From an uncultured Planctomycetales bacterium (lineage in GTDB: Bacteria > Omnitrophota > Gorgyraeia > Gygaellales > Profunditerraquicolaceae): 64,000 bases of DNA. Both the position numbers and the translations under genes were made by a program. Of this stretch, positions 5,982 to 59,349 are shown piece after piece (within the stretch, counting starts at the first letter, position 1; every line of letters begins with the position of its first letter). The stretch is from NCBI GenBank assembly GCA_964542785.1, contig CAZIUK010000003.1:12946-76945 (forward strand). The letters run 5' to 3'. The notes beneath the pieces are model-generated. The model was given only the letters and a program-made list of their open reading frames with translations, was not told where the DNA came from and ran no database searches.

Positions 5982-5982
5982 G

Positions 5983-32609: not shown

Positions 32610-32628
32610 TATTATAAATGGTATAAAA

Positions 32629-32665
32629 GGGGACAGCGACTTTTTTATCAAAAAGTCGCTGTCCC
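32629..32665. repeat. REP-like inverted pair (hairpin): GGGGACAGCGAC-ttttttatcaaaaa-GTCGCTGTCCC
   Basis: I read it directly from the sequence. It lies in the 20-bp gap between the secretin-1 stop and the likely secretin-2 start. Confidence 0.8.
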
Positions 32666-32670
32666 TATTT

Positions 32671-36818: not shown

Positions 36819-36872
36819 GGGGACAGCGACTATTACTATTTTTGCGCTATGATAAAAAAAGTCGCTGTCCCC
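36819..36872. repeat. REP-like inverted pair with a 30-nt spacer (GGGGACAGCGAC ... GTCGCTGTCCCC)
   Basis: The spacer contains the likely ATG (36849) of the downstream gene. The second arm AAAAAAGTCGCTGTCCCC is translated as KKVAVP within the signal peptide. Confidence 0.8.
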
Positions 36873-39338
36873 ATTTTGGTTGCGTGTTTTTTTGTTGTCG
36901 CAGCGCAGGCAGAGGTCTTGGTAATTAAAGCTCCCTTAACTTGGGGGCTTGATAAATCCGCAGAATACCCTTTGCCAAAAGTATTAAACGGTATTTATAC
37001 AACTGACCAGTTTGTAGCTACTGAAGGACAAGTTAGCGCTATTACGATGAATTGGGAATCAAGGGGCGCTATATCAATGGAGGTAAGCGCTGATAATGGG
37101 CTGCATTATACTCCGGTAATAAATGGCGTTCCTTTAGAGAGCGGTTTTGTAAGTGGAGATAGGATTCGCTGGCGGGCACAAGCGCTAAATGAGGATGCGC
37201 AGTTAACAGCGGTGAATCTTTCTTATTCTGATACATCCGGAGTAATAGGGGATTTTGGCCAGCCACTTTTAAGCGGATTTATGTACCGTAAAGAATTTAT
37301 AGTGCGCAATGATTCTAGAGAAGATTTATACAATTATCAGATGAAGCTAAGAATAGGGGAAAGTGAATTAGCCAAGGATGCTGATATCTGCCTTTCTAAA
37401 AAAGCAAAAGAGGATTTTAGCGATATAAGAATTAGCGCATCTGATGGTAAGCGTATTTTATCCTATTATCTTGAAAGCATAGAAGGCGAGCTTCCAGGAA
37501 AGCGCAGTGCTGTAATTTGGGTTAATATTCCTCAACTGCCAAAAGAAAAAGATTTAAAGCTTTACCTATATTATGGGAATCCGCAGGCTTTAAGTTTATC
37601 AAGCGGCGAGCAGACGTTTGATTTTTTTGATGATTTTAAAGACCCTGCCAAGAGCAATGAGAAATGGATAACCTATACAGAAAAAAACGGTACCTTGCAA
37701 TTAAAAAATGGGGAAATTAAGCTTGATGCAGCCGAAGCCATTACAAAAGATTTTCTTTTTAAAGAAGGAATTGTTGAGTATCCCGTAGAGATTGAGAGCG
37801 GTTTTGAAAACAGTTTAAACTTGCGTGTCCAGAATGGTAACTCTTATGATATTCCGCTTTGGTCGGGTTATTCTTCTTTATACAAAGGTGCAGAGCATTG
37901 CATTGCTGTAGAGGGGACAGTAAGAAATAATGACACAACTGCTCTACCTTCTTTTGCCGGAAATAGGTATTACTACCGTTTTGAATATTTTAATGGTAAT
38001 ATAGTCTTTAGCCGTTTTGATGCTTTGACTAAAGAAAAGCAGGCAGAGGCAGTCTTTAAGTCTGATTCTTTGCAAAAAATAGGCTATCTGTCTTTGCGTT
38101 CCGGAGGTGACGGGAATGGCAAGAATGTTATTCGTTTTGGCGCTATACTTGTGCGTAAAGCTGCTTTAATCAAACCGTATTTTGTTTCAGCAGGAAAAGA
38201 AGAGCAACTCTCTTTGCCTATTTTTTCCGGTACAACTCTTTCTTCTTTTGGGAGCCTTACTTTGGCCAAAGGGGCAATGAGCGGGCATTATATTTCAAGT
38301 AATATCCGAAGCGAAGACCAGATAAGGATCATGATCCCTGACTGGGATATTGATTCTCTTGGAGGAGAGTTTATCTTACATCTTTCTGCTGATGCCGGCG
38401 GGTCATATAAGAAAGGCTGCGAAAAGGGGAAGTATTATTATGCTTCAAAAAAGGATTTTGTCCCCGGGAAAAACTTAAAGATACGCATTGACCTTTTAAA
38501 AGGGGCAGGCTCCGAAGTCGAAAAAGTCGCTGTCCCCTTTGTGAAGGTGGAGCATAGGGCAGGAAAGGTAAATATTATTTCACCTAATGGCAGAGAGGTC
38601 TGGGAGGTAGGAAGCAGTAAGAAGATTAGCTGGAGTGCCTTGGATTACGATGAAACTTATCTTTTTGATTTAGCTTACTCTGTCAATGGAGGAAAGGATT
38701 ATATTGAGATTATAGCCAATAAAGATAATGATGGAGTTTATACTTGGGTTGTCCCGGATAAAATTACTAAAATCGCAAAGATAAAGATATCTGATTCTTT
38801 GGATAAAGGTATTTATGATCTTTCCGATGCTTATTTTTCTATTGTAGCTAGAGAAGATTTAAGCATTCAGGAAGAGAAAAAAGAAGAAGCAGGGGTAGTA
38901 GTGCAGGCAGCGCTAAAAGATAAAGCCAGTAAAGAGAGCAAAGATAAGAAAGATAAAGTTACTAAAGAAAGCAAAAAGAAGAAAGATAAAGTTAGCAAAG
39001 AGAACAAAAAGTTGCCGGGGAAAAATCTTTATGATCTTTTAATTAAGATAGGCGATAGCAGGTCTTCCTACAGCGAGGGGGATATTGTTATCTTAAGGCC
39101 TTCAGGTTATATTTGGAGCGTTGAAGAGAGGGAGAAGTTTTTGATTGCGCAGGTATACCTAACTGAAAAGCAGGCTGAGGAATTAACCTCTCCTTTAAAA
39201 ACAAAGGATGGAGAGATATTAAGCCGCAGGAAATATAGGATTAACTTGCTTAAGCAGGGGCTTAAAGGTTTGACAGGGTCAATTAAAAGGCCAAAGGGCT
39301 CTTTTGAGGCAGGGGTTATTGAGGATAAGGCAAATTAG
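36849..39338 (+). CDS. Large secreted protein (~830 aa) of unknown function with a K/E-rich low-complexity segment
   Basis: The likely start at 36849 gives the signal peptide MIKKVAVPILVACFFVVAAQA. The track start 36768 lies within a TATAAT-like element and runs through the microsatellite and REP. The K/E-rich segment is KDKASKESKDKKDKVTKESKKKKDKVSKENKK. Confidence 0.5.
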   Translation: MIKKVAVPILVACFFVVAAQAEVLVIKAPLTWGLDKSAEYPLPKVLNGIYTTDQFVATEGQVSAITMNWESRGAISMEVSADNGLHYTPVINGVPLESGFVSGDRIRWRAQALNEDAQLTAVNLSYSDTSGVIGDFGQPLLSGFMYRKEFIVRNDSREDLYNYQMKLRIGESELAKDADICLSKKAKEDFSDIRISASDGKRILSYYLESIEGELPGKRSAVIWVNIPQLPKEKDLKLYLYYGNPQALSLSSGEQTFDFFDDFKDPAKSNEKWITYTEKNGTLQLKNGEIKLDAAEAITKDFLFKEGIVEYPVEIESGFENSLNLRVQNGNSYDIPLWSGYSSLYKGAEHCIAVEGTVRNNDTTALPSFAGNRYYYRFEYFNGNIVFSRFDALTKEKQAEAVFKSDSLQKIGYLSLRSGGDGNGKNVIRFGAILVRKAALIKPYFVSAGKEEQLSLPIFSGTTLSSFGSLTLAKGAMSGHYISSNIRSEDQIRIMIPDWDIDSLGGEFILHLSADAGGSYKKGCEKGKYYYASKKDFVPGKNLKIRIDLLKGAGSEVEKVAVPFVKVEHRAGKVNIISPNGREVWEVGSSKKISWSALDYDETYLFDLAYSVNGGKDYIEIIANKDNDGVYTWVVPDKITKIAKIKISDSLDKGIYDLSDAYFSIVAREDLSIQEEKKEEAGVVVQAALKDKASKESKDKKDKVTKESKKKKDKVSKENKKLPGKNLYDLLIKIGDSRSSYSEGDIVILRPSGYIWSVEEREKFLIAQVYLTEKQAEELTSPLKTKDGEILSRRKYRINLLKQGLKGLTGSIKRPKGSFEAGVIEDKAN
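38526..38537 (-). repeat. REP-like single copy (GTCGCTGTCCCC) embedded inside the coding sequence
   Basis: GAAGTCGAAAAAGTCGCTGTCCCCTTT is translated as EVEKVAVPF, the same KVAVP peptide as in the signal peptide. Confidence 0.6.
38931..39011 (+). repeat. 33-bp imperfect tandem repeat (about 2.4 units) encoding the KESKDKKDKVT / KESKKKKDKVS low-complexity segment
   Basis: The units are aaagagagcaaagataagaaagataaagttact and aaagaaagcaaaaagaagaaagataaagttagc. Confidence 0.6.
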
Positions 39339-39379: not shown

Positions 39380-40987
39380 ATGAGAAAGAAGTTATTAGTC
39401 TTCTGGGTTTTATTTTTTGCTTTAGTATTTTTAAAGAGTACCTTTGCCAATAATATAACTGTAAGCAACCTTTCGCTGGATAACCTGGATTCAGCTTCAG
39501 GCACAGTTGAGATAAAGTTTGATTTAGATTGGGAGAATAGTTTTTCCCCGGAACAAGACCCTGATGCTACAACATTTGACGCAGCGTGGGTATTTGTTAA
39601 GTTTTACAGCGGAGATCCTAAGAAGTGGCATCATGCGCGGCTAAGCGAAGGCGGGACCTTCCAGTTGTATAGCACGGAGACAAAATTAGGGATTACCGAG
39701 GATAGAGTAGGTGTTTTTTGCCGCCCGGGAAACAACCAAACCCTTATCTGGAACTATCGTGATGCAGGAGTCAGCTTGGAAGAGGAGGATATAAAGATTA
39801 AGGTCTTTGCCATTGAGATGGTATATATACCAGAGGGAGAGTTTTATATAGGTTCCGGTATGCTAGAAGCTTATTCGTTTTATGACGCCTCTGATCCTAC
39901 TCGGAGTCAGCCTATTAAAATTACTGCCTCTTCTCCCTGGCTCTCTGATAGGGCTAATGGCGCTGAAGGCACAGGAATACCAGGAGATATAGCGTTTAAT
40001 AAGACTACCAGTCCTGGCTATGGTAATCTGCCAGTAGTAAGAACCCAATTAAACCCTAACTATCCTACAGGATACAAGGGGTTTTATATCGCAAAGTATC
40101 CGATCTCTCAGGGTCAATACAGGGATTTTTTAAATACCCTGACTAGGGAAGAGCAGCATAGGCTGGTTGGGAAAACTATAAGTGACACTAACGCATCTTT
40201 CTCACTTCCTGACAATATCCCTCCAGGAACAACAGAGGTAACTAATGTATATGTAATGGAGAATTCTCCCGCCTTAACTAGGCGTGTTTCAATAAGATGC
40301 GATAGCCAGATAGATGCGTATGCTCCGGTAACTTTTTACTGCGACTTAAATGGAAACGGTATTCCTAATGAAGAAGATGATGGAGAGTGGCTCCCGATGA
40401 GTGACATCTGGTGGCACTTTAACGGAGCATTCTGTGATTGGGCAGGGTTGCGGCCTATAACTGAATTAGAATATGAAAAAGCCTGCCGCGGTCCAGTTTA
40501 TCCTGTCCCAGGGGAATTGGCTCATGGGCTTTCTAACGTTAATTATCTTTCGGTTTCCGCTGCCCAGGTAGGTAACCCCGGGCGAATTGATGAGTATGCA
40601 ACTAATAACGGGAACTTTCGTTGGATATATGGTACCTCGTGGATAATGCGGGTAGGTTTTGCCGCGACCCCTAATTCTACCAGGGAATCAGCAATTTCTT
40701 CTTATTATGGGGTAATGGATATGACATCCCAGGTTAGTACTCCTGTTGTAAGTGTAGTTGCTCTTACTTTTGACGGACAACATGGAGATGGAGAGTTAGA
40801 CGCGTCAGTAAACACAGTGCATAATGTGCCTAACTGGCCTACAGATCATGCAGGCTGGCGCTCCGGTGACAGGAATTATGTGAGTGCGGTTTCGTACCGT
40901 TATTCTGATAGCAATCTGGATCCTTTAGTATGGAAAAAGAATCGTACTGGAAATAGCAGTATACGTCCTTGCCGGACTGCTTATTAG
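39380..40987 (+). CDS. Secreted protein with an FGE-sulfatase (SUMF1/formylglycine-generating-enzyme-like) domain
   Basis: It has a signal peptide. KGFYIAKYPISQGQYRDFL and WWHFNGAFCDWAGLRPITELEYEKACRG resemble the conserved FGE-sulfatase domain blocks (...GKYEVTQ.QY..F / SW.DA.AFC.W...RLPTEAEWEYAARG). Confidence 0.55.
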   Translation: MRKKLLVFWVLFFALVFLKSTFANNITVSNLSLDNLDSASGTVEIKFDLDWENSFSPEQDPDATTFDAAWVFVKFYSGDPKKWHHARLSEGGTFQLYSTETKLGITEDRVGVFCRPGNNQTLIWNYRDAGVSLEEEDIKIKVFAIEMVYIPEGEFYIGSGMLEAYSFYDASDPTRSQPIKITASSPWLSDRANGAEGTGIPGDIAFNKTTSPGYGNLPVVRTQLNPNYPTGYKGFYIAKYPISQGQYRDFLNTLTREEQHRLVGKTISDTNASFSLPDNIPPGTTEVTNVYVMENSPALTRRVSIRCDSQIDAYAPVTFYCDLNGNGIPNEEDDGEWLPMSDIWWHFNGAFCDWAGLRPITELEYEKACRGPVYPVPGELAHGLSNVNYLSVSAAQVGNPGRIDEYATNNGNFRWIYGTSWIMRVGFAATPNSTRESAISSYYGVMDMTSQVSTPVVSVVALTFDGQHGDGELDASVNTVHNVPNWPTDHAGWRSGDRNYVSAVSYRYSDSNLDPLVWKKNRTGNSSIRPCRTAY

Positions 40988-41036
40988 GAAGTTAACAGGT
41001 TTTTGTAGGATTAAAGAGGATTTAAAAGAGGGAAAG

Positions 41037-43922
41037 ATGGAAAAGAAAGAGAGAATAAACATAATAATTTCAGTAATTCTTATTCTTACGGCAGCATCCC
41101 TGTTTTTTCCGCTTTCTTCTGCCTTTGCCGGCCAATTTACCGGAGGTATCGGCGACGGAGATGCTTGTGCAGAGGTCTCTCTCTCCTCTCTGGCTACGGT
41201 TCCAGAAGTAGTTTCAAAGATTATCCGGGCAGGGGAGGAGATATTATCTATCAGCCGCTTAAATAACAAAGTTACCGTTGTCTTGACTAACCCCTACCCT
41301 AATAATAACCTTAAACCCGGCCAGTATATTGTGATTTATACCGGGATCTCTGGGACTCCTTCTTTTAACGGCAGATTCTTAATTGATAGCGTCTTAAGCC
41401 AAAGCGAGTTTACCTATCAGCAGGGAGGCAGTAATGAGTCAGGGTCTATAGGAAGCTTTAGTTTTGCCGGAGGAGATTTTAGTACCCTTACTAGCTGGGA
41501 GGCTGATTTACCGTATGATTTAGCCAGTACAGGCACGCCGCATATCGCCGTATGTTATAATGATTGGGTATCAGGGCTTAAAGATAACCTTGTGGTTGAA
41601 GGACATACAACCACCCCTAAATATTATATAAAAATTACTCCTTTTAGGCTTGACCGAAATACTGGGAAACCAAAGTCAGGCTTTTTTATTGCTCCTTCAA
41701 GCGGAAATGCAATAATCCTCCAGGATAATGCTGATTTGGTGCTTGATAGTATTGAAGCTACTGCTCCGGTAGTGATCAATGCCGGAGTAGCCCGGGTTGA
41801 TGATCGTTCCATCTATTCAAAGTTAGAGGTAGGTAGCGGCGCGACCTTGGCTCTTAGCGGGGCGAATTTTGGTAATTTAAAAGAGATGGTTATAAACGCA
41901 GGTTCAACCCTTGAATATCTTGACGGTGATTCTTCTTCTTTAGACAACCCAATAGCCTTGCTTAACCAGGATCACCATCATCTTAAGCTTTCTAAGGGGT
42001 TTTTTAAGTTACCGGCAGATAATTTTACTATTATGGGTAATATTGATATCGGATCACAGGCAAGCTTGGATGCGACAGAAAATAATTATAATATCAAAGT
42101 TGCAGGAGATTGGTTCTGTTTGGGGAATTTTAATTCGCGCGTGGCAGGAGTGGAATTTAACGGAACTAACCAAAAGATATCCGGGTCAACTTCTTTCTTT
42201 AATTTTAGAAAAGATAACTCAGGCCCTGGTACCTTAATCTTGACCTTTGAAAGCGCATCTCTTCAGACTGTCAAAGGCAGGCTTGACTTAGGAAGAGGAA
42301 GCAGGGAAAATTTTTTAAAGTTGCGCAGCAGCCAGGAGGGGAGTCAGTGGGAGCTTGACCTTCAGGGAGATAGCTTAGCCGGGTTTGTAAATGTAAAGGA
42401 TTCTGATGCTTCCAGGGGAAATAAGGTTTATGCTACAGCTTCTTTGGATTCCGGGAATAATGATAATTGGGAGTTTAACAGCGCTGAAGGAGGGCCTATC
42501 CAGTCTGTGAGCGTTTCTCCTTCAAGCGGGTATCGAAAGATCGGAGAGAGTGTAGGGTTTACAATTAAAATCAAGCCGCAATATTCTAACAGCACTCTTT
42601 TGTATTATGAATCTTATTTTGGAAACCATTTAATTGAGCTAACCAGGGAAGAAGACGGTATAACTTTTAATGGTTCCTATATAGTTAAAGAGGGTGATCC
42701 TGATATAGCTGATCCTTCTTTGTCAGGCAGGCTTGAGATTATGCCTTTTGGGGGAGCTACATCTCTTTTTAGCGCGATTTTATCTAAAACCACTCTGTAT
42801 ATAGATGCTAATAAGCCGGTAGTAAGTAGTGGAAACATCTTAGTTACCACTAGTCCTGATAATGGTGAATTTTATCGCGCTGGCGAAGATATTACTCTTA
42901 CCTGGGATAATTCTGCTTCTGGAGACGGGAGCCATAATCCGGATATTGCCCTAGTTACCGCTGATTTTTCAGCTTTAGGCGGAAGTTCTGCTGTAGAGAT
43001 GTCAGAGAGCGAAGGTATTTATACCGCAAGCTATACAGTTTCTGCTGAGAGTATAAATGGTACCCATGATATCTTAGTTACTGTTACGGATAAGGCCGGC
43101 AACCAGACCTCTCTTGCCGCCCCTACAAAGGTAAGAGTTGTCTCTGGCTCTCTTACGCTTACCAGCCCCACTACCCCGGTAAGCTATGTTGCCGGAACAA
43201 CCCAGAAGATAACCTGGAATGCTTCTGGAGATATAAGTACGGTAAATTTAAAATATTCCATTGATTCAGGACAAAGTTATAAGACCATTAACACTGTAGG
43301 GTCTTTGACCGGGGGGAATACTTGTGACTGGGTAGTTCCTAGCGATATAACTTCTAAGGCCCGGGTTAAGGTTGAGGATACTGCCATTAAGCAGGTTTAT
43401 AGCGCCTCAAGCGTAGATTTTAGCATTGTTTATCCTTCTGTTACTATTACCAGTCCTAATGGAGGGGAGTCTTGGACAGCAGGCTCTAAACAGAATATTA
43501 CTTGGACAACGAATTCACCTTTAGTGACTCATCTTAAACTTGAATATTCTGTTGATGGAGGATCAAGCTGGAATTTAATTGCCGCAGCAGTTCCTAATAC
43601 AGGATCATATTTATGGAAACTGGATAACCTTTTTGCTGTAGATACTGTTAGGGTAAGGGCGACAGGCTTAGCCCGTAATCAAATGTTAACTTTAGGCGGA
43701 AGCGCTATGGACAAAGTTTCTTCTGGCGCTTGGCTGGAGGATAACTATAAGGTTTTAGCCATAGAGGTCTTAAGTGATTTTAACGCAGGAGACACTCTGC
43801 TGATATCTGGTCTAAAGTTCGGTAATTTTATTGTCTCTCCTGCGAATAACCTGAAGTTAAGCGCTGGAAGTAATTCTGTTATAGATGATAAGAAGATTAC
43901 AGTTATAGCGCCTTCTGTTTAG
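41037..43922 (+). CDS. Large secreted surface protein with repeated Ig-like/beta-sandwich modules
   Basis: It has a signal peptide or TM segment. Repeated modules include ITWNASGDISTVNLKYSIDSGQSYKTIN and ITWTTNSPLVTHLKLEYSVDGGSSWNLIA. Confidence 0.5.
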   Translation: MEKKERINIIISVILILTAASLFFPLSSAFAGQFTGGIGDGDACAEVSLSSLATVPEVVSKIIRAGEEILSISRLNNKVTVVLTNPYPNNNLKPGQYIVIYTGISGTPSFNGRFLIDSVLSQSEFTYQQGGSNESGSIGSFSFAGGDFSTLTSWEADLPYDLASTGTPHIAVCYNDWVSGLKDNLVVEGHTTTPKYYIKITPFRLDRNTGKPKSGFFIAPSSGNAIILQDNADLVLDSIEATAPVVINAGVARVDDRSIYSKLEVGSGATLALSGANFGNLKEMVINAGSTLEYLDGDSSSLDNPIALLNQDHHHLKLSKGFFKLPADNFTIMGNIDIGSQASLDATENNYNIKVAGDWFCLGNFNSRVAGVEFNGTNQKISGSTSFFNFRKDNSGPGTLILTFESASLQTVKGRLDLGRGSRENFLKLRSSQEGSQWELDLQGDSLAGFVNVKDSDASRGNKVYATASLDSGNNDNWEFNSAEGGPIQSVSVSPSSGYRKIGESVGFTIKIKPQYSNSTLLYYESYFGNHLIELTREEDGITFNGSYIVKEGDPDIADPSLSGRLEIMPFGGATSLFSAILSKTTLYIDANKPVVSSGNILVTTSPDNGEFYRAGEDITLTWDNSASGDGSHNPDIALVTADFSALGGSSAVEMSESEGIYTASYTVSAESINGTHDILVTVTDKAGNQTSLAAPTKVRVVSGSLTLTSPTTPVSYVAGTTQKITWNASGDISTVNLKYSIDSGQSYKTINTVGSLTGGNTCDWVVPSDITSKARVKVEDTAIKQVYSASSVDFSIVYPSVTITSPNGGESWTAGSKQNITWTTNSPLVTHLKLEYSVDGGSSWNLIAAAVPNTGSYLWKLDNLFAVDTVRVRATGLARNQMLTLGGSAMDKVSSGAWLEDNYKVLAIEVLSDFNAGDTLLISGLKFGNFIVSPANNLKLSAGSNSVIDDKKITVIAPSV

Positions 43923-44022
43923 CAAGGCGGATTTGGGGATAGTTTTGTTTAGGTAAGGGGATTATAGAGGTTTTAAGATAAGAGTAGTTAGAGATGGTTA
44001 GAAGATGTGGGGTGAATAGATT

Positions 44023-47000
44023 ATGAAGAAAATACTCAAGGTATTATTAATAGGCGGGTTAGCGCTCTGGGGTTATTTTGAATCCGCATCCTTGGCTTTA
44101 GGAGCTAATCTTTCTATCTCAAGCGCGTCTGATCAGACCTTTATCTCTGAGGAAGCGCCTAAGGATGCGCAGGCTATAACCATTACTGATGTATCTGGAT
44201 CCGGCATAATCGTTTCAAGCGGGTTGAGGATACTTATCCCGGATTCTTTCGGGATGCAGTGGCATGGGGCTATGCTTAGGGATGATAGCGTGACTGATAC
44301 CTCTAACGCTGATTTTAGTGTTATTGCCGCGCAGATAATCTCTGCCGGGGTAACCTTGGAAAGTTCAGATGCCGGAGCAACCGGGAGCGTGGAGGTTAAT
44401 TTTACCAGTATAAACTCTATACCTGCTGATGCAAAGATAGTGATTACATTCCCGGATAATTTTGTTTTTAATTCTAAAAGCCCAACTCTTGCTTCTTCTG
44501 CCACAATGAGCGGGGATTTTAGTGTTAGTATTACTGGGCAGGTTATAACAGTTACCCGCAACTCAACTTCGGCTTCTTCTGCTGGAAGCCACTTAATTAC
44601 CTTAACTAATATTAAGAATCCGATTAGGCCGGGAACAACTGGGGCATATTCATTGAAGATCCAGACTCTGGCGGGGTTTGATATTGATGTGAATAATGAT
44701 TTAGCCGCTTCCACGATTGTCCCTGCGGCAACTTCCCGTATAACTTTAAATTCTCCGGATGATATGACTGCAGGCGCAGCGCGCGCAGCCTACACCTTAA
44801 CCCGTTATGATGAGTACGGTAATTTAAGTACACAAGAGGAAGAAGTCTTTGACATTTCAACTACCTCTACCGGGGATAATGCTGTTTTCTACAATGATGC
44901 TACTGCAAGCGAAGCCGGGAATATCATTACCAGTATCACTATCCCCCAGGGTTCTTCTTCGGTTAACTTCTGGTATGACGATACCAAGATGGGGGCGTAT
45001 ACAATTGCGGCTATTAAATCAGATCAGCCTGAGATTACCGTTTCTGATGGTATAAATGTAAAGCATGCTGAACCGGATCATTTAAGGTTTGTTTCTGATA
45101 TACCTACTGCGGATGCCAAGCAGGTCTCTGTGCAGTTTAACCTGCCTCAGCTTGCTGCTGTTGACCGTTATGATAATATACTTACTAATGACTACGGAGC
45201 TGCTGCTTATTCCGGGAATAAGGCTATAACCTATTCCTTAAGCGGTCAAAGAGACGCTCCCGACGGAAATGGGACAGATCTTTTTTATTCCGACAATGTA
45301 GCTTCGGCGAAGGTAAATTTTACTAACGGCCTCTCAACAAATGCCCTTAGCGCTAAGTTATACCGGGCGCAGAATACGGTTATATCCCCGGCGGATAGTA
45401 ATCTTCCCAGCGAGAGTCTTCCTTCTAACGAGATTATTGTTAACCCGGCTACAGCGACAAAACTGGTCTTTAAACAGCAGCCTTCTGGCAGTGCGATAGT
45501 CAACTCTGCCTTTTTACAACAGCCGGTAGTAGCTATCCAGGATCATTACGGCAACCAGACTTTGGATATATTCCCGATAAAGCTCTATGATTCTATCCGT
45601 TCGGAATTTCCTTATGCCGATGCTCCTGGAATTTTAACTTCTGACCACGAGGATAATACATTAAATGCCGTTGCAGGCGAGGCGTCTTTTAGCGGGGTTG
45701 AATATAATGCCTCAGGTGTAATATACCTGTATGCCCAAGGATTAGGCGCAGGCAGCAATGTTAACCCTGTTTTTTCAAATGAGATAACCCTGGCTACTTC
45801 CGTCACAACCATGGTTAAGGCCGCGGATACTCCTGTAGCTGACTTTAACCTAACTCCTACCAACGATACATTGGAAAAGAAGTTTAAGGTTTTAAAGTTT
45901 AAGGTAACTGATGCCGGAGAAGATAAGACTCCTACATTGATCGATCAGATTAAAATAGCAGTATCCGGCACCGGGGGTCATGCTTCTACAGATATTGCCT
46001 GGGCAGGTTTATATGTAGGAGAAGAAAAGGTGGCGGATGCTGCTTCTATAACAGATGACTTTATTACTTTTGGGCAGGAGCCTAACAGCGATTCTACTGC
46101 AGGTATCTACAGCGTGCCTGATAGTAGCTCTGTTGAATTTACCGTGTATATCCATATGAAGCCGGATAAGTTATCCGCCCTTGACGGCCAGTCGTATATC
46201 TTTACTACTGATGAAGATAGGGTAGGGGTTGACAGAGGGGCTTCTTCGCAAATGACGGCAAGCTCAGGCAGTATAGCCGCTGTTACCGGAACTATTAAAG
46301 TTGATATGACGCATCTTGAGATTGTAACTGAAGAAGGAGCCTCAACATTAACTGTCTCTGCTGGGGTGCCGGTAGAGCTGTTGGTGCGCGCTACCGACGC
46401 TAATAAGAACATAGATAGCGATTATAATGGTAGCCATACCTTAGTCTTCTCAGGGTTAAATAGTGTTGGTACCCTTTACCCAAAGATAGAGAGTGTCCTT
46501 TTTGGCTATAATATAACTATTTCTTTTTCAGGAGGTATTTCTGCTTCTCAAGGAGTTACCCTTACTCCTTATAAGAGCGAGGAAGGTATAATCGTTGTCC
46601 AGGAATCAGGAAAGTCTTACAGTCAGCATGGATTAACTGCCACGATTGTCCCTGCGGCGACTTCCCGTATAACTTTAAATTCTCCGGATGATATGACTGC
46701 AGGCGCAGCGCGCGCAGCCTACACCTTAACCCGTTATGATGAGTACGGTAATTTAAGTACACAAGAGGAAGAAGTCTTTGACATTTCAACTACCTCTACC
46801 GGGGATAATGCTGTTTTCTACAATGATGCTACTGCAAGCGAAGCCGGGAATATCATTACCAGTATCACTATCCCCCAGGGTTCTTCTTCGGTTAACTTCT
46901 GGTATGACGATACCAAGATGGGGGCGTATACAATTGCGGCTATTAAATCAGATCAGCCTGAGATTACCGTTTCTGATGGTATAAATGTAAAGCATGCTGA

Positions 47001-50000
47001 ACCGGATCATTTAAGGTTTGTTTCTGATATACCTACTGCGGATGCCAAGCAGGTCTCTGTGCAGTTTAACCTGCCTCAGCTTGCTGCTGTTGACCGTTAT
47101 GATAATATACTTACTAATGACTACGGAGCTGCTGCTTATTCCGGGAATAAGGCTATAACCTATTCCTTAAGCGGTCAAAGAGACGCTCCCGACGGAAATG
47201 GGACAGATCTTTTTTATTCCGACAATGTAGCTTCGGCGAAGGTAAATTTTACTAACGGCCTCTCAACAAATGCCCTTAGCGCTAAGTTATACCGGGCGCA
47301 GAATACGGTTATATCCCCGGCGGATAGTAATCTTCCCAGCGAGAGTCTTCCTTCTAACGAGATTATTGTTAACCCGGCTACAGCGACAAAACTGGTCTTT
47401 AAACAGCAGCCTTCTGGCAGTGCGATAGTCAACTCTGCCTTTTTACAACAGCCGGTAGTAGCTATCCAGGATCATTACGGCAACCAGACTTTGGATATAT
47501 TCCCGATAAAGCTCTATGATTCTATCCGTTCGGAATTTCCTTATGCCGATGCTCCTGGAATTTTAACTTCTGACCACGAGGATAATACATTAAATGCCGT
47601 TGCAGGCGAGGCGTCTTTTAGCGGGGTTGAATATAATGCCTCAGGTGTAATATACCTGTATGCCCAAGGATTAGGCGCAGGCAGCAATGTTAACCCTGTT
47701 TTTTCAAATGAGATAACCCTGGCTACTTCCGTCACAACCATGGTTAAGGCCGCGGATACTCCTGTAGCTGACTTTAACCTAACTCCTACCAACGATACAT
47801 TGGAAAAGAAGTTTAAGGTTTTAAAGTTTAAGGTAACTGATGCCGGAGAAGATAAGACTCCTACATTGATCGATCAGATTAAAATAGCAGTATCCGGCAC
47901 CGGGGGTCATGCTTCTACAGATATTGCCTGGGCAGGTTTATATGTAGGAGAAGAAAAGGTGGCGGATGCTGCTTCTATAACAGATGACTTTATTACTTTT
48001 GGGCAGGAGCCTAACAGCGATTCTACTGCAGGTATCTACAGCGTGCCTGATAGTAGCTCTGTTGAATTTACCGTGTATATCCATATGAAGCCGGATAAGT
48101 TATCCGCCCTTGACGGCCAGTCGTATATCTTTACTACTGATGAAGATAGGGTAGGGGTTGACAGAGGGGCTTCTTCGCAAATGACGGCAAGCTCAGGCAG
48201 TATAGCCGCTGTTACCGGAACTATTAAAGTTGATATGACGCATCTTGAGATTGTAACTGAAGAAGGAGCCTCAACATTAACTGTCTCTGCTGGGGTGCCG
48301 GTAGAGCTGTTGGTGCGCGCTACCGACGCTAATAAGAACATAGATAGCGATTATAATGGTAGCCATACCTTAGTCTTCTCAGGGTTAAATAGTGTTGGTA
48401 CCCTTTACCCAAAGATAGAGAGTGTCCTTTTTGGCTATAATATAACTATTTCTTTTTCAGGAGGTATTTCTGCTTCTCAAGGAGTTACCCTTACTCCTTA
48501 TAAGAGCGAGGAAGGTATAATCGTTGTCCAGGAATCAGGAAAGTCTTACAGTCAGCATGGATTAACTGCCACGATTAATGCGGGTGCTGCCAGTAATATT
48601 GCCCTATTAAGCGGCAATAACCAATCTGGAAAGATAGCCGCGCCTCTACTCCAGGCTTTTGTGGTGGCAGTTACCGATGTTTATGGTAATGGTATTGGAT
48701 CTGGGACCGGGGTTGATTTTGCTATTCTTAGCCAGCCTGAAGGTGCAACAGGAGCTTTATTAAGCACTATTTCTGGTGTAACTGATGCTAATGGCCATGC
48801 CTTTACAACCCTGACTGTAGGTAGCCTTGCTGGTGATTATCAGGTGACTGCTTCTTCAGCGGGGTTATCTGGTTCACCGGTAACTTTTATCGCTACGGGT
48901 TTACTCCCTAGTGCAATTCAGCTTTTAAGCGGAGATAACCAGTCTAAACAGGTAGTTTCTGCATTAGATGACCCTCTGGTAGTTAAAATAGTTGATTCAA
49001 CAGGTATTCCTATTCCTCGTGAGAAAGTGGATTTTACTATATCTTCTTATCCTGAAGGCGCGGTTGGGCAAGCGCTCTTGTCAGGCTCAGTGGTAACTGA
49101 TGATAACGGCCAGGCACAGACCAGCTTTACTTTAGGAGATAAGGCAGGGGTTTACAAGGTAACTGTTAATTGCGGTTCGCTTACTGCGGTTGATTTTAAT
49201 TTTAATGCTACTGCCAGGGCTCCTTATCAGGTAGCCTTAAGAGGTCCGGTTTCAGTCAAGGCAGGGGAGGTCTCTACCAAATTTACCGTCTCCATAGAGG
49301 ATGAATACAATAATCCTTCTAATTTATCCCAGGCAACTGTATTTTCATTAACCAATAATCCTTCTCGGCCAAGCGGAATATTTTATTCAAATAGCGACGG
49401 GACGTTAGCAATTAATTCTCTGACTGTAGCTAAGGGTACGAATAGCGCCAGTTTTTACTATAAGGATACAATAACTGGCATGGCGAATATTACGGCAACC
49501 CGTACTAGCGGGCAGTCTTTAATCCAGGGAATATCAAGCCAGGAAGTTACGGTTATCCCTTCGGATGCCTATCGTTTTACTATTGTTGGCAATACTGATA
49601 CTATAGAGACAGGGGAAAGTAAAGTATTGACCATAACCGCTTATGATAATTTAGGCAATGTAAAGAGCGATTATACCGGGAATGTTAATGTTCTCTTCTC
49701 TGGGGCTAGTGCTTCCCCAGCTCCTTCATCAAAGAAAGCCACAGCTTCTAACCATCTAAGTCAGGATATTGAATTTGGAAAGACTACCAGCCTAAACTTT
49801 ATTAATGGTGTAGCTGTTTCAACCTTGAAGTTTTATAAAGTAGAGGATGTGAATATAAAGATAACCAGCGGTTCAATAGTTACTGCTGAAGAGGATAGTC
49901 TAAGCTTTACCGTCAGGCATGGTCAGGCAGATCACTTGAAATTCGGCGGGAATCTTCCTGCTTTGCAGGAGGCGGGGGTAGAGTTTGATTTTGAAACTAC

Positions 50001-53000
50001 GCTGCAAGCGGTTGACCTTTATGATAATATCTGCAACGGCCTTAATGGTTCTTCCGGATTCTCTGGTTCAAAGAAGGTTACCTGGAGTTTAAGCGGAGCT
50101 TCTGATGGACCTGAGGGGAATGTTATTGATGAGTTTGTCAGTCCTGTAGAGTTTAGCTTAGGGGTATCCACTACTACTTTAAGCGCAAAGCTCTACCGTG
50201 CACAGGATACCACCATTACCGCTGCTATTTCTGCTTTAATAGGGGTAAATGTTGCTTCGAATACAATTACAGTTGAGCCTGGGGCAGTAGCAAAGCTAAG
50301 GTTCTCTCAGGAGCCTGCGGCTTCTTCCATTACCAGTCAGGCTTTAGAGGTACAGCCTAAGGTTGCGGTAAGTGATCAGTATGGTAACCCTGTTTCTACT
50401 ACCTCGGCTAACGTAAGCATTGCTGCTTCAACTAGCAATGATTCATTTGTACCTGTGGTTAATGGAGTATTAAGCGCTATTGGAGGACTTACAGCATCTA
50501 CAGTTAACGGAGTAGCTTCTTTTAGCGGAGTAACCTATAATTATCCTGAGACTATTTACCTTCGCGCCACAGTCGCAGGGGTAAGCCTGGTGCCGGTATT
50601 CTCTTCAGGTATAACATTTAGTACCGCTCAGGAAACAGCTCTCTCTGTTACTACACCAGGGCCTACTGCTATTTCTTCTCTTGCCTATACTACTGCAGAC
50701 AGAGTTGGGGTGCTTAATTTTAGGGTTGTTGATGGGGGGACTGATGGTTTCTCCAGTAAGATACGCCAGGTGATTGTAAAGCGCAACACCTCTGATACTA
50801 CCGGCGGGTGGACAAATTACCTGCAGGGAGTCTATATTACCGATGGAGCAACGCAGGTGGTTGGGAGGATAGAGGATGATCAGATTATTTTTGGCTTGGG
50901 GGGAAATGATATTTATGATGTTACTAACGGCACGACTAAGAATTTTACTGTGAGCGTATTTTTGAAGAATCCGCTCCCCTTAGATTCAGATAATAAGGTT
51001 TTGGGTTTCAAGCTTGATCCGGCTACAGATATAGTATTTGGTTCACCTAGCTCTAGGCTTGTCTCTTCTTCTGTGATGAGTTCAACTCCAAAGATCTCGG
51101 TTGTGGCTACTGATTTTGCTATTTTTGGCTCTCCTACCATGAATGCCGGAGATACCCAGCCGATTACGCTTAAGGCCGTAGATATACTGGGCAATATTGA
51201 TAAGGATTATGTTGGAGAAAAAACTTTAGTTTTTAGCGGACCAAGTATAACGAGTAAAGGAAATGAGCCCATCGAGACGACCTCAAATATTCCTTTTGGT
51301 ACGGATACCCCGGTTTCTTTTACCAACGGCCAGAGCTCATCTACCGTCGGGATTAAACTCTTTAAAGCCGAAACTGCTTATGTTAAGGCAGCCGATATTT
51401 CTGCGGGGATAACTACTCCTAATCAGAAAGCCTTGATTGTTACGGTTTACGGCGGAGCTGCCACGGGTTTAAGTTGGCTTACCCAGCCGGTGGGCGTAGT
51501 TGTCGAAAATGCCCCGTGGAAAGAGTTTAGTATTTCAGTTACCGATGCTTATGGCAATACCTCATCCAGCAGTACTGAGGTAACCGTAGCTCCTTCTAAC
51601 GGCAGTATCTCTACAGGTTCGCAGGCAACAGTTACCGCTCAATCGGGAATAGCCACATTCTATAATTTTGCGGTAAATGGTCTTAATGATGAAGAGAAGA
51701 TCACTTTAAGCGCATCAGCAAGCGGGGTAGCCGGTACCGGTCCTTCCAATGAAGTGCAGGTATTTAAGGTTTATAAGGTAACGGTCTTTGTAAAAGATTA
51801 TACTAGCGCTAGTAATCTTACTGAATGCGCTTTGGATGCCACATCTAACGGAGTAGTCGTAGATGGTTTTCCAAAGACAGGCAACAGCCCGTTTACTTTT
51901 AACTTGCCCTACGGGACGTATACCTTCCGGGTCTCTAAGGAAAAATATGTTGATGAAAACACCGAAAAGACAGCTGGTGTTGCCGCGGATTACCTGGACG
52001 GAGTATATGATGCAAAGATTACCTGGTCTTTGACTGCTACAAGTTTAGTTGAGGCTACTGCTGATTATAAAGCACAGAGCGCTTTTGTTTATGATGAAAG
52101 TACTGACAAGCTTTCTATCCGCGTCTGGCTGGAGAAGCGCGGGAAGATGGTAGTTAATGATGATGTTAATATTTTAGGTAATGCGGTTGTAGATATCTAT
52201 AATGATTCTACCGGGGGATGGCTTAAGTCAATTACCTTAGAGCCTCCTGCTGCGTCTAATACTGTAAATGGAGTTTATTTTAAGGAGATACCTAATGTAG
52301 TTTCTGTTGACGATGATTTTAACCTTGTTGCAGGCAAGACCTATTTTGCCCGTGTTGTCATTAATTATGGTGGGCTTACTGGTACAGGCAGAAGTTATGA
52401 AGGAGGAGCGACCTTTAGTGTTACTATAAACGAGAATCTGCGCGCAGTTACTAATTCTATTCAGACGGTTGCTACTAATATCGCCGGGCAGACTGCGGCA
52501 ATTCAAAAGACGATAAAGGATGAGATAGAAGGCCAGATTACTAGTGTTGTTGTGCCTAAGATTACTGATGTAAAGACTGAGACATCTAAGATTCTTTCTG
52601 CCACAGGCACAGAGTCTTTGCAGGATAAGATTGCCGAGGTAAAAACACAGGTAGTCCAGGAGGTTCAGCCGCATATTAAATCCGGTATATTAAATGGAGA
52701 GACTGCGGTAAGAACTGGCTCTAAACTAGCTGTTCGTTATCGAACTGATTCTGGACTTTCTCCAACGATATCCGTATATAGCCCCAAGAACAATCTTCTT
52801 ATCTCCGACAGGGCTATGGCAGAGATAGGGATAACGGGAATCTATGAGTATAATGTAACATTTTTACCGGCTTGGGGGAGGGGATCCTTTACTATTGTTT
52901 GTTCAGAGCCGGTAAAAGGAACAGCTGATGCCTTTGTGCTTAAGGTAAGTGATTCGGATATAGAGGATATATCAAGTAGTGTCTCTGCTGTTTTAGGTAG

Positions 53001-53370
53001 CACCTCTGGCATTACCAACCTTAAGAAAGTAACCGAAACCTTAAACGCGCAGTTTAGTGATATGGATAAGGCTATTGCCCAAATCAGCAAGAATATTACT
53101 GGAAAGGTTGAAGAGGTAAAAGGGGCTGCCGTTGAACTTGCCGGCGTATTTAAGCAGCTTGAGGATATGAGTAATACCATTAAGAGCTTAGGAGGGACAG
53201 CCGGTATAAATATTGATAAGATTTACGAGGTATCTAAAGATAAGCAGGAGGATATTAGTTATATTAAGAATAAGAGCGAAGAGCTTAAGGCGGCGATGGA
53301 GCTTAACCAAAAGATGATAGAGAATGTTGCTAAGAAGCCAGTAGTTCAAACCTGGTTTGAATTCAAGTAA
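44023..53370 (+). CDS. Giant (3115-aa) secreted adhesin/S-layer-like protein built of repeated beta-sandwich modules, with a coiled-coil-like C-terminus
   Basis: It is a single uninterrupted ORF with a signal peptide (MKKILKVLLIGGLALWGYF). It contains diverged internal module repeats plus one near-identical 643-aa tandem duplication. Confidence 0.6.
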   Translation: MKKILKVLLIGGLALWGYFESASLALGANLSISSASDQTFISEEAPKDAQAITITDVSGSGIIVSSGLRILIPDSFGMQWHGAMLRDDSVTDTSNADFSVIAAQIISAGVTLESSDAGATGSVEVNFTSINSIPADAKIVITFPDNFVFNSKSPTLASSATMSGDFSVSITGQVITVTRNSTSASSAGSHLITLTNIKNPIRPGTTGAYSLKIQTLAGFDIDVNNDLAASTIVPAATSRITLNSPDDMTAGAARAAYTLTRYDEYGNLSTQEEEVFDISTTSTGDNAVFYNDATASEAGNIITSITIPQGSSSVNFWYDDTKMGAYTIAAIKSDQPEITVSDGINVKHAEPDHLRFVSDIPTADAKQVSVQFNLPQLAAVDRYDNILTNDYGAAAYSGNKAITYSLSGQRDAPDGNGTDLFYSDNVASAKVNFTNGLSTNALSAKLYRAQNTVISPADSNLPSESLPSNEIIVNPATATKLVFKQQPSGSAIVNSAFLQQPVVAIQDHYGNQTLDIFPIKLYDSIRSEFPYADAPGILTSDHEDNTLNAVAGEASFSGVEYNASGVIYLYAQGLGAGSNVNPVFSNEITLATSVTTMVKAADTPVADFNLTPTNDTLEKKFKVLKFKVTDAGEDKTPTLIDQIKIAVSGTGGHASTDIAWAGLYVGEEKVADAASITDDFITFGQEPNSDSTAGIYSVPDSSSVEFTVYIHMKPDKLSALDGQSYIFTTDEDRVGVDRGASSQMTASSGSIAAVTGTIKVDMTHLEIVTEEGASTLTVSAGVPVELLVRATDANKNIDSDYNGSHTLVFSGLNSVGTLYPKIESVLFGYNITISFSGGISASQGVTLTPYKSEEGIIVVQESGKSYSQHGLTATIVPAATSRITLNSPDDMTAGAARAAYTLTRYDEYGNLSTQEEEVFDISTTSTGDNAVFYNDATASEAGNIITSITIPQGSSSVNFWYDDTKMGAYTIAAIKSDQPEITVSDGINVKHAEPDHLRFVSDIPTADAKQVSVQFNLPQLAAVDRYDNILTNDYGAAAYSGNKAITYSLSGQRDAPDGNGTDLFYSDNVASAKVNFTNGLSTNALSAKLYRAQNTVISPADSNLPSESLPSNEIIVNPATATKLVFKQQPSGSAIVNSAFLQQPVVAIQDHYGNQTLDIFPIKLYDSIRSEFPYADAPGILTSDHEDNTLNAVAGEASFSGVEYNASGVIYLYAQGLGAGSNVNPVFSNEITLATSVTTMVKAADTPVADFNLTPTNDTLEKKFKVLKFKVTDAGEDKTPTLIDQIKIAVSGTGGHASTDIAWAGLYVGEEKVADAASITDDFITFGQEPNSDSTAGIYSVPDSSSVEFTVYIHMKPDKLSALDGQSYIFTTDEDRVGVDRGASSQMTASSGSIAAVTGTIKVDMTHLEIVTEEGASTLTVSAGVPVELLVRATDANKNIDSDYNGSHTLVFSGLNSVGTLYPKIESVLFGYNITISFSGGISASQGVTLTPYKSEEGIIVVQESGKSYSQHGLTATINAGAASNIALLSGNNQSGKIAAPLLQAFVVAVTDVYGNGIGSGTGVDFAILSQPEGATGALLSTISGVTDANGHAFTTLTVGSLAGDYQVTASSAGLSGSPVTFIATGLLPSAIQLLSGDNQSKQVVSALDDPLVVKIVDSTGIPIPREKVDFTISSYPEGAVGQALLSGSVVTDDNGQAQTSFTLGDKAGVYKVTVNCGSLTAVDFNFNATARAPYQVALRGPVSVKAGEVSTKFTVSIEDEYNNPSNLSQATVFSLTNNPSRPSGIFYSNSDGTLAINSLTVAKGTNSASFYYKDTITGMANITATRTSGQSLIQGISSQEVTVIPSDAYRFTIVGNTDTIETGESKVLTITAYDNLGNVKSDYTGNVNVLFSGASASPAPSSKKATASNHLSQDIEFGKTTSLNFINGVAVSTLKFYKVEDVNIKITSGSIVTAEEDSLSFTVRHGQADHLKFGGNLPALQEAGVEFDFETTLQAVDLYDNICNGLNGSSGFSGSKKVTWSLSGASDGPEGNVIDEFVSPVEFSLGVSTTTLSAKLYRAQDTTITAAISALIGVNVASNTITVEPGAVAKLRFSQEPAASSITSQALEVQPKVAVSDQYGNPVSTTSANVSIAASTSNDSFVPVVNGVLSAIGGLTASTVNGVASFSGVTYNYPETIYLRATVAGVSLVPVFSSGITFSTAQETALSVTTPGPTAISSLAYTTADRVGVLNFRVVDGGTDGFSSKIRQVIVKRNTSDTTGGWTNYLQGVYITDGATQVVGRIEDDQIIFGLGGNDIYDVTNGTTKNFTVSVFLKNPLPLDSDNKVLGFKLDPATDIVFGSPSSRLVSSSVMSSTPKISVVATDFAIFGSPTMNAGDTQPITLKAVDILGNIDKDYVGEKTLVFSGPSITSKGNEPIETTSNIPFGTDTPVSFTNGQSSSTVGIKLFKAETAYVKAADISAGITTPNQKALIVTVYGGAATGLSWLTQPVGVVVENAPWKEFSISVTDAYGNTSSSSTEVTVAPSNGSISTGSQATVTAQSGIATFYNFAVNGLNDEEKITLSASASGVAGTGPSNEVQVFKVYKVTVFVKDYTSASNLTECALDATSNGVVVDGFPKTGNSPFTFNLPYGTYTFRVSKEKYVDENTEKTAGVAADYLDGVYDAKITWSLTATSLVEATADYKAQSAFVYDESTDKLSIRVWLEKRGKMVVNDDVNILGNAVVDIYNDSTGGWLKSITLEPPAASNTVNGVYFKEIPNVVSVDDDFNLVAGKTYFARVVINYGGLTGTGRSYEGGATFSVTINENLRAVTNSIQTVATNIAGQTAAIQKTIKDEIEGQITSVVVPKITDVKTETSKILSATGTESLQDKIAEVKTQVVQEVQPHIKSGILNGETAVRTGSKLAVRYRTDSGLSPTISVYSPKNNLLISDRAMAEIGITGIYEYNVTFLPAWGRGSFTIVCSEPVKGTADAFVLKVSDSDIEDISSSVSAVLGSTSGITNLKKVTETLNAQFSDMDKAIAQISKNITGKVEEVKGAAVELAGVFKQLEDMSNTIKSLGGTAGINIDKIYEVSKDKQEDISYIKNKSEELKAAMELNQKMIENVAKKPVVQTWFEFK
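44711..48568 (+). repeat. Near-perfect tandem duplication, 2 x 1929 bp (643 codons, in frame), inside the giant gene
   Basis: Copy 1 is 44711-46639 and copy 2 is 46640-48568. The 8-bp junction homology ccacgatt repeats at 48569-48576. The only difference I noticed is a vs g at 44729/46658, which is synonymous. Shadow ORFs at 1929-bp offsets confirm the identity. Confidence 0.85.
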
Positions 53371-53390
53371 AAATAATGATAATGGATAAT

Positions 53391-53449
53391 GGGGACAGCG
53401 ACTTTTTTGATAAAAAGTCGCTGTCCCCCTAGAAAAAGTCGCTGTCCCC
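53391..53449. repeat. REP-like triplet: GGGGACAGCGAC-tttttgataaaaa-GTCGCTGTCCCC-ctagaaaaa-GTCGCTGTCCCC
   Basis: It starts 20 bp after the giant-gene stop. The first pair forms a hairpin and probably acts as a terminator or mRNA stabiliser. Confidence 0.8.
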
Positions 53450-53495
53450 TTTAAAAGGGTGACATATTTGAAAAATATGGTAAAATAAAATCAAG

Positions 53496-55213: not shown

Positions 55214-55650
55214 TATGGGGAGAATAGCCAGAATAGTAGGAGTAGGGTTGCCGCACCATATTACACAGAGAAGGAATTACCAATAATGTTGCTCATATGC
55301 GTTATTCGCAGTATTTTAATAATAAATTAAACCAGCGAGGGCATCTTTGGCAGGGAAGATTTTATTCTTGTATTTTGTCGCAAGCGCACCTTATGCTTGC
55401 TGCTTGCTATATAGAGCGTAATCCTGTACGCGCGGGTTTAGTAGATCAGCCATGGCATTGGCAATGGTCAAGTGCTGCCAGCCATACAAACCGTAAGATT
55501 GATGAGTTGGTTAATTCTGATGAGTTGTTAAAGCTTGTAGGTATGTCAAGCTCTTCTTGGGAGAAATATATAGAAACAAAGGAAGAAGAGAGTTTTTTGC
55601 AGGATATAAGGAAACATACTTTTACCAGTCGTTCTTTTGGCGTGGTTTAG
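55214..55650 (+). pseudogene. Decayed RayT / IS200-IS605-family HUH Y1 tyrosine-transposase (REP-associated transposase) remnant
   Basis: ATG 55214 encodes MGRIARIVGVGLPHHITQRRNYQ*, which matches the conserved N-terminal ...HH(V/I)TQRGN block. A frame change follows, and ORF 55297-55650 encodes ...NQRGHLWQGRFYSCIL...YIERNPVRAGLV...WQWSSAASH, the conserved C-terminal GxLWQxRFxS / YIxxNPVxAGLV / WSS blocks. The central HuH (HVHLL) segment is missing. Confidence 0.65.
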
Positions 55651-55699
55651 GTTATTTTAAGGAGCAGGTCTAAGAAGGATAGGGTTGGGTTAAAAAAAA

Positions 55700-55711
55700 G
55701 TCGCTGTCCCC
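55700..55711 (-). repeat. REP-like single copy GTCGCTGTCCCC (right flank of the RayT remnant)
   Basis: It is an exact 12-mer in reverse orientation, preceded by A8. It lies 24 bp upstream of the GGDEF gene. Confidence 0.75.
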
Positions 55712-55735
55712 GTTTTAGTATGGAGGTTATTTAAG

Positions 55736-59251: not shown

Positions 59252-59280
59252 ATGGGATAAATGAAATGGGGGACGAAATG

Positions 59281-59340
59281 GGGGACAGCGACTTTTTTCT
59301 AAAAAAAGTCGCTGTCCTCCCATAAAGTCGCTGTCCCTCC
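59281..59340. repeat. REP-like triplet between atpA and atpG: GGGGACAGCGAC-ttttttctaaaaaaa-GTCGCTGTCCtCC-cataaa-GTCGCTGTCCCtCC
   Basis: It is an intercistronic, BIME-like arrangement with slightly degenerate arms. It is preceded by short GAAATGGGGGAC direct repeats at 59259-59283. Confidence 0.75.
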
Positions 59341-59349
59341 CATTAAAAG

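Follow-up and report, generated by a model that had tools for sequence, protein, structure and literature searches.

A near-identical, in-frame tandem duplication of a five-domain cassette in a putative surface-fibre gene of an uncultured Omnitrophota bacterium

Introduction

The closest functional analogy to the gene described here is found in the Periscope Proteins (Whelan et al. 2021, PMC8201768; reviewed in PMC9704523), which include SasG, Rib, Sgo_0707 and CdrA, and in which high DNA identity between repeats goes with length variation of the surface protein (PMC8201768, PMC9704523). Here we analyse a 64,000-bp stretch of DNA (the window; assembly GCA_964542785.1, contig CAZIUK010000003.1, positions 12,946 to 76,945) from an uncultured Omnitrophota bacterium, in which one long gene, referred to below as the fibre gene, contains two consecutive and almost identical copies of a 1929-bp unit. 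All positions are those of the window. We consider it probable, at roughly 65%, that this is a real and evolutionarily very young tandem duplication, mediated by microhomology, of a 643-aa cassette of five domains, which lengthened a Sec-exported, immunoglobulin (Ig)-like surface fibre.

The fibre protein resembles the Periscope Proteins in that it is a long beta-sandwich protein of surface type, with tandem repeats of near-identical DNA in the stalk between head and base; expansion and contraction would be expected through homologous recombination between the repeats. As in that group, the repeats are long, nearly identical (1928 of 1929 bases) and encode folded domains. The differences are that only two copies are present, that a 643-aa cassette of five dissimilar domains is repeated in place of a single domain of 50-165 residues, that the host is an uncultured member of the Omnitrophota, and that no known attachment motif, cell-wall or other, was found by Pfam, NCBIfam or PDB sequence searches.

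Strings of Ig-like domains, a variable N-terminus with a conserved remainder and a putative signal peptide are also shared with the fibrillar adhesins that have Big_1 or invasin-intimin stalks (PMC8286594, PMC9210967), such as FdeC. The stalk of repeated Ig-like domains is present in the fibre protein, as judged from a Big_1 match and from Foldseek comparisons, whereas an adhesive domain combined with a known anchor was not recognised. The sequence searches returned no recognised adhesive head domain and no beta-barrel, LPXTG or LysM anchor, and the head and the C-terminus gave nothing beyond a sub-threshold match to PEGA; the C-terminus is instead made of family-specific beta-sandwiches and long helices.

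At the level of DNA, bacterial duplications can arise by routes other than homologous recombination, strand slippage among them; RecA-based recombination afterwards expands or removes copies, and such duplications are unstable (PMC11721125). The repeat in the fibre gene is like such tandem duplications and amplifications at short junction homology (PMC11721125), being arranged head to tail with 8 bp at the junction, and it would be expected to be reversible by RecA. Unlike typical cases, it is intragenic and in frame and alters the architecture of a protein, not the dosage of a gene, and no selective agent is known.

Finally, giant proteins have been described from the same phylum (West-Roberts et al. 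2023, bioRxiv 10.1101/2023.11.21.568195; Nielsen & Lui 2026, bioRxiv 10.64898/2026.06.07.730766). The fibre protein is likewise large, repeat-rich and predicted to be exported, with genes of the type II secretion or secretin type nearby. At 3.1 thousand amino acids (kAA), however, it is far below the 10-kAA and 30-kAA classes, and it has no HEAT, dockerin or SecA-DEAD domain. In Omnitrophota genes of at least 10 kAA, strict identical tandems never reach 10% of the coding sequence (CDS), and the repeats are read as ancient (bioRxiv 10.1101/2023.11.21.568195; 10.64898/2026.06.07.730766); the near-identical tandem described here makes up 41% of its CDS, in a gene outside the length class of that survey. 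The Archaeovorin and Dockerin-type giants comprise at least 30,000 aa, with many transmembrane regions and HEAT / SecA-DEAD or dockerin / TSP3 domains; membership in either group is ruled out for the fibre protein by its 3115 aa and by the finding of none of the defining domains.

Results

Two copies of a 1929-bp unit lie in one reading frame

According to the list of open reading frames (ORFs) and its translation, the fibre gene is a forward-strand ORF of 3115 codons plus stop (44023-53370). Direct comparison places copy 1 of the unit, cassette A1, at 44711-46639 (aa 231-873) and copy 2, cassette A2, at 46640-48568 (aa 874-1516), both on the forward strand and both in frame. The two agree at 1928 of 1929 bases, far beyond chance. 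The match extends 8 bases further to the right, at 48569-48576 (CCACGATT), and ends immediately left of 44711. The sole difference, 20 nt from the start of the copy, is an A at 44730 (GCA) against a G at 46659 (GCG); it falls in a third codon position, and both codons specify alanine, so that it is synonymous. Since relatives carry G at the equivalent site, copy 2 has the ancestral state and copy 1 is the changed one. No other long repeat was found in the window by megablast self-comparison and a repeat search. A preliminary description of this DNA had reported the same two copies, an 8-bp junction microhomology and a single synonymous A/G difference; all of this was confirmed, except that the coordinates of the difference (44729 and 46658) were one base low.

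The word CCACGATT occurs in the window only at the three copy boundaries, each time on the forward strand. At the left breakpoint (44711-44718) it lies in the linker ...AAS-TI-VPAAT, and at the right breakpoint (48569-48576) in the linker …HGLTA-TI-NAGAA. At the novel junction between them (46640-46647), the end of copy 1 (…TTAACTG) is joined through CCACGATT to the start of copy 2 (GTCCCTGCGGCG…), and the product encodes …HGLTA-TI-VPAAT…. The junction 41-mer is CAGCATGGATTAACTGCCACGATTGTCCCTGCGGCGACTTC, and the boundary sequences are …TTAGCCGCTTCCACGATTGTCCCTGCGGCAAC… on the left and …GGATTAACTGCCACGATTAATGCGGGTGC… on the right. A junction microhomology of at least 8 bp has a chance probability of about 1e-4.

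Both breakpoints fall in inter-domain linkers, ahead of the first strand of the first domain and past the last strand of the fifth, according to the AlphaFold2 (AF2) model and the alignment. The two ends of the cassette, which we call cassette A, are paralogous linkers that encode a conserved A-(S/A)-T-I. In relatives with a single copy, the equivalent 8-mer, CTACAATT or a one-base variant of it, is present at both ends of the cassette: at the position of the left breakpoint it reads CTACAATT in locus L022 and CGACAATT in locus L021, and at the right breakpoint CTACAATT in L021 and L001. Because the 8-mer flanks the cassette where only one copy exists, the short homology is an ancestral by-product of the conserved linker motif.

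The longest word common to the unit and the rest of the window has 13 nt. This means that no k-mer or overlap assembler could have built the junction from repeats, and that the junction must exist in reads. A repeat-induced misjoin, one form of the assembly artefact that the preliminary description had offered as an alternative, is thereby ruled out; a weaker form, in which a loop was walked or a consensus reused, survives and is weighed below.

The unit encodes five dissimilar beta-sandwich domains

The AF2 model of the unit, built on 16 cassette sequences, is all-beta with a mean predicted local distance difference test score (pLDDT) of 90.4. Judged by the pattern of its strands, the unit falls into five domains, D1 to D5, at approximately residues 1-117, 118-245, 246-361, 362-530 and 531-643; the earlier count of about four beta-sandwich modules was close, but slightly low. 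In our reading, four of these measure about 115 aa, look Ig-like and have a D-x-(Y/F)-(G/D/K)-N motif in common, and the remaining one is a larger sandwich of about 165 aa. Similarity among the five is weak and local. In a Foldseek comparison with the PDB, the model matched Ig-like strings, namely the PrgB Ig domains, titin I65-I70, the S-layer protein SbsC and the adhesin FdeC (PDB 4e9l), each with probability 1.00, and further matches were to the macroglobulin (MG) domains of complement and alpha-2-macroglobulin. None of the cassette domains could be named from Pfam, NCBIfam or PDB sequence searches.

The cassette profile has matches at E <=1e-3 in 10,713 representative proteins. Several of them, including P0040 (6874 aa), P0041, P0052 and P0066, carry very large arrays of single cassette domains; the commonest arrayed type matches profile positions of about 233-350, corresponding to D3, with up to 45 matched stretches in one protein. 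Since many proteins match single cassette domains in this way, the component domains belong to a widespread Ig-like type, which Pfam does not detect in the cassette.

The cassettes lie between a variable head and a conserved C-terminal region

The fibre protein starts with a putative signal peptide (MKKILKVLLIGGLALWGYFESASLALG; 44023-44103, forward strand), recognised from a basic n-region, a hydrophobic core and an A-L-G motif. It is followed by an N-terminal head module (aa 28-230; 44104-44712, forward strand), the most variable region among family members, for which Pfam, NCBIfam and PDB sequence searches gave no match. In relatives, other modules or several copies of this head module are found N-terminal to cassette A. 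The homologues are proteins of Candidatus Omnitrophota and Velamenicoccus archaeovorus of 2500-4700 aa, for which the precomputed Pfam families include those of the NHL, LamG and RCC1 types; a protein identical to ours (P0001) is present in NCBI, on a 101,391-bp contig.

Past cassette A2, a spacer of Ig-like domains of about 330 aa (aa 1517-1842; 48571-49548, forward strand) includes domains of the Big_1 / Invasin_D3 type. The Big_1 match (E 4.9e-14) is above the gathering score; that to Invasin_D3 (E 1.8e-6), with 28.8 bits, is below the gathering score of 33 bits. The next element, cassette B (aa 1843-2468; 49549-51426, forward strand), is a diverged paralogue of the whole five-domain cassette with the same linker start position. 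A and B share 31.5% identity over 653 BLASTP columns (E 1e-53), with a full-length profile match; they are too diverged for locus-level alignment, and the comparison across relatives was made by whole-protein alignment. Cassette B is present in all orthologues. The diverged but related modules that the preliminary description had noted elsewhere in the protein are thus accounted for by a paralogue of the entire cassette.

More Ig domains separate cassette B from a conserved C-terminal region of 556 aa (aa 2560-3115; 51700-53367, forward strand), in which alignments and an AF2 model indicate three beta-sandwiches interleaved with long helices. The first sandwich is weakly PEGA-like (E 8e-4, below the cutoff). 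We presume that this region is the base or anchor of the fibre. After the helical part, the protein ends in KPVVQTWFEFK (53335-53367), a motif found throughout the family that, on the evidence of its sequence and position, may be a docking or sorting signal. The C-termini of P0002-P0012 read (K/E)P(V/I)(V/T)x(T/S/G)W(F/L/Y/M)E…, and P0011 has an extra tail beyond the motif.

Considering the folds indicated by AF2 and Foldseek, the Big_1 match, and the two secretins, the histidine kinase / LuxR pair and the Ig-rich genes upstream, the product looks like a secreted, Ig-rich fibre. This agrees with the earlier description of the gene as adhesin-like and of surface type. Scans for promoters and terminators across the fibre gene gave a yield no richer than that of shuffled sequence.

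No readable relative has a second cassette A

We used the cassette profile to search 1.84 billion representative proteins and then made a local count of full-length cassettes. Among 38 cassette-bearing proteins, 19 have one cassette, 18 have two (A plus the diverged B), and the window protein alone has three. A second A copy thus occurs in 0 of the 37 others, a count to be read with the fact that the representatives, at 50% identity, hide strain-level variation and that short-read assemblies are prone to collapse or break such repeats. The orthologues at the fetched loci have cassette B, either alone or together with one cassette A, and none has a second A. In L021, a SPAdes contig with 72% nucleotide identity, the sequence runs continuously from the gene start through a single cassette A into the right flank, and the closed genome of Velamenicoccus archaeovorus LiM (L006) also has one A cassette. 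The closest relative is L001, at 82-91% nucleotide identity, whose contig ends within cassette A. The comparison with related metagenome-assembled genomes (MAGs) that the preliminary description had proposed therefore finds a single cassette A in every readable relative. It shows that the ancestral gene had a single A cassette beside an old and diverged B cassette, and it supports the view that the duplication is probably derived and private to this genome among the relatives that could be read.

Near-identity does not by itself date the event. An old duplication could have been kept identical by gene conversion (concerted evolution), for which identical 1.9-kb tandem copies would be good substrates of homologous exchange (PMC11721125). 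The bound on time is loose, as nucleotide identity to the nearest relative whose architecture could be read is only 72% and the contig of the closer L001 ends within the cassette. We nevertheless regard gene conversion as very improbable: the absence of a second A from the 37 other proteins and from every fetched locus stands against it, and so does the old A/B pair, which has persisted in the same gene at 31% identity without homogenisation. We also count against this explanation that loss is the commoner fate of tandem repeats of this length.

Could the contig misrepresent the genome?

The weaker form of the artefact accepts that the junction occurs in some reads, and holds that the contig is unfaithful to the genome. 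There are two possibilities. First, a de Bruijn loop may have been walked once, in which case there could be two or more copies, or the duplication could be limited to a sub-population, and interior differences would have been collapsed. Second, a chimeric read or an amplification chimera may have formed at the 8-bp microhomology in a region of low coverage, in which case the true gene would encode about 2472 aa.

Several observations weigh against our preferred reading, that of a real and very young duplication, and most of them bear on this point. The copy number and inter-copy identity given here are those of the assembled contig. The same strain (99.98% nucleotide identity over 4258 bp) is present in three Joint Genome Institute (JGI) samples (3300076261, 3300076258 and 3300076594) and one Logan run (SRR12447105), and was found through the downstream 234-aa gene, but these contigs (L017-L020) are at most 4.3 kb long and end 3.2 kb downstream of the repeat. 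No independent assembly among the same-strain contigs, the JGI contigs and the fetched loci contains the junction: neither the JGI metagenome contigs nor any of the 22 fetched loci contained a degenerate form of the junction 41-mer, a scan of the JGI metagenome contigs with a peptide pattern of the unit gave no relatives, and a 400-aa protein query across the junction returned only fragments at 72-78% identity. The sole inter-copy difference, 20 nt from the boundary and within k-mer reach of the unique flank, fits a graph assembler that reused one consensus; a randomly placed difference would fall within 20 nt of a boundary with p of about 0.02. As a loop-walking graph assembler keeps only differences that are phased with the flanks, the near-perfect identity and the count of exactly two copies may be partly made by assembly. 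At the level of the protein, the C-terminal AF2 model reaches a pLDDT of 65, with the helices at low confidence; surface location is a prediction, and any binding function is hypothetical. For variation of repeat number between strains, the defining feature of the Periscope Proteins, the material covered comprises one assembly of this strain that reaches the repeat, and relatives at 82% nucleotide identity or less, which have one copy or are truncated.

Amplified repeats are difficult for short-read assembly according to reviews (PMC11721125), and short-read assemblies of the strain and of its close relatives do fragment in or near the gene. Two contigs of other lineages end inside cassette A, L001 (MEGAHIT, k127) at its position 1, equal to window 48251, and L002 at its position 2, equal to unit residue 256. 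This hints, anecdotally, that the cassette-A region is hard to assemble in other lineages too, through repeats or strain variation; the end of the L001 contig, 318 bp from the end of the cassette, is a poor fit to a simple repeat-boundary break at k=127.

We nonetheless consider misrepresentation by the assembly unlikely, if well short of negligible. With no word of the unit longer than 13 nt elsewhere, the junction could not be invented without reads. It is in frame, joins equivalent linkers and contains a conserved 8-mer, as would be expected of a selected product, whereas a random chimera need not have these features. In addition, the 101-kb contig reads through 3.9 kb of repeat, which is easier with long reads.

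Genomic neighbourhood of the fibre gene

The surrounding genes are chromosomal and include those for ribonucleotide reductase, MnmG, NAD synthase and ATP synthase; this housekeeping context rules out a phage tail-fibre origin. Just upstream of the fibre gene lie genes for two secretins, a histidine kinase / LuxR pair, a DUF2341 protein, an FGE-sulfatase-domain protein and an Ig-rich protein.

In four relatives, a diversity-generating retroelement (DGR) lies directly upstream of the orthologous fibre gene (L021:1153-3747, L022:1686-4766, L006:1472-7598, the last from the closed V. archaeovorus LiM genome, and L012:999-8224). It consists of FGE-sulfatase-domain genes, which are likely its targets, together with Avd and a reverse transcriptase. 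L006 and L012 each have two FGE-sulfatase genes, 95% and 93% identical, respectively. The window retains an FGE-sulfatase-domain gene (39380-40987). Between it and the fibre gene (39380-44023) no reverse transcriptase or Avd was found, and none was present among the ORFs scanned in the window, a scan outside which the ORFs at about 14.2-19.3 kb fall. A template repeat (TR)-like sequence for the 3' end of the FGE-sulfatase gene was likewise absent from the window. A DGR pair of template and variable repeats as the source of the 1929-bp repeat is ruled out, as a single base differs between the copies and no TR-like repeat is present.

Directly past the stop codon of the fibre gene is a palindrome resembling repetitive extragenic palindromic (REP) elements (GGGGACAGCGACTTTTTT…AAAAAGTCGCTGTCCCC; 53388-53470), which, from its sequence, is a possible terminator hairpin (53388-53428). 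Further intergenic copies of the REP-like palindrome are found at 32626-32687, 36854-36893, 55671-55732 and 59278-59343. Beside one of them lies a 117-aa ORF (55297-55650) with weak similarity, below the cutoff, to the C-terminal part of a REP-associated tyrosine transposase (NF047646, E 1e-8).

The left edge of the window (7-7712) holds an ORF of at least 1138 aa that includes a Peptidase_M54 domain, and behind this ORF lie a pair of PilZ genes and a sugar ABC transporter. West-Roberts et al. describe such a context downstream of Omnitrophota giant genes (bioRxiv 10.1101/2023.11.21.568195), and judging by these genes the 3' end of a giant gene may extend into the window at this edge. The gene for the large subunit of ribonucleotide reductase (19404-23003) contains an intein with a LAGLIDADG homing-endonuclease domain and encodes a C-terminal TSCPD domain. 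Nearly all ORFs of at least 150 aa are on the forward strand, the one exception lying inside the fibre gene, as are all ORFs matched to a family. The GC skew of the window is strongly positive (0.15-0.26); over the genes for Ig-rich surface proteins (40001-52000) it drops to 0.03-0.12, and the G+C content climbs from about 0.39 to 0.445.

Discussion

The preliminary description had suggested a very recent duplication of a block of modules. The duplication is derived and private among the relatives compared, keeps the reading frame and has both ends in linkers, all of which favour that suggestion; it is qualified by the weaker form of the artefact, which survives. The copy-number variation that the description linked to such a duplication, and any antigenic role, are hypothetical here. 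We propose the following course of events for the duplication. In the first step, the two 8-mers, which lay 1929 bp apart, would have undergone illegitimate recombination or served for replication slippage or template switching, a step that needs no extended homology. The new junction joins the two linker sites in frame. Once formed, the identical 1.9-kb copies would be a substrate for homologous unequal exchange, through which the array could shrink to one copy or grow. Five additional beta-sandwich domains would stand between the variable head at the N-terminus of the fibre and the conserved base at its C-terminus, and the head would consequently be held farther from the cell. As the unit is made of five mutually dissimilar domains, no domain adjoins an identical neighbour.

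It is conceivable, though we think it doubtful, that the cassette is a length-variation module (a 'cassette periscope') of a host-contact fibre in episymbiotic or predatory Omnitrophota, with cells of one, two, and three or more cassettes tuning the reach of the head. If this were true, identical domains would never stand side by side, and the module would act at a locus where relatives use a DGR, so that two mechanisms of variation would serve one attachment apparatus.

Tandem duplications that keep the frame and affect the stalk domains of a bacterial surface-type protein are familiar, and the event itself opens no new mechanism and settles no long-standing question. Less usual are its unit of 643 aa with five different domains, its uncultured Omnitrophota host and the large share of the CDS taken up by the tandem. 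For users of MAGs it is a warning that the copy number and identity of 2-kb tandem repeats are untrustworthy without long reads. If real, it would be an exception, in a shorter gene, to the near-absence of near-identical tandems in the very long genes of Omnitrophota. It would also capture in the act how long multi-domain surface proteins grow in uncultured, host-dependent bacteria, namely by the duplication of whole cassettes at short homologies in conserved linkers, a step that the same gene shows once earlier, in its ancient A/B pair.

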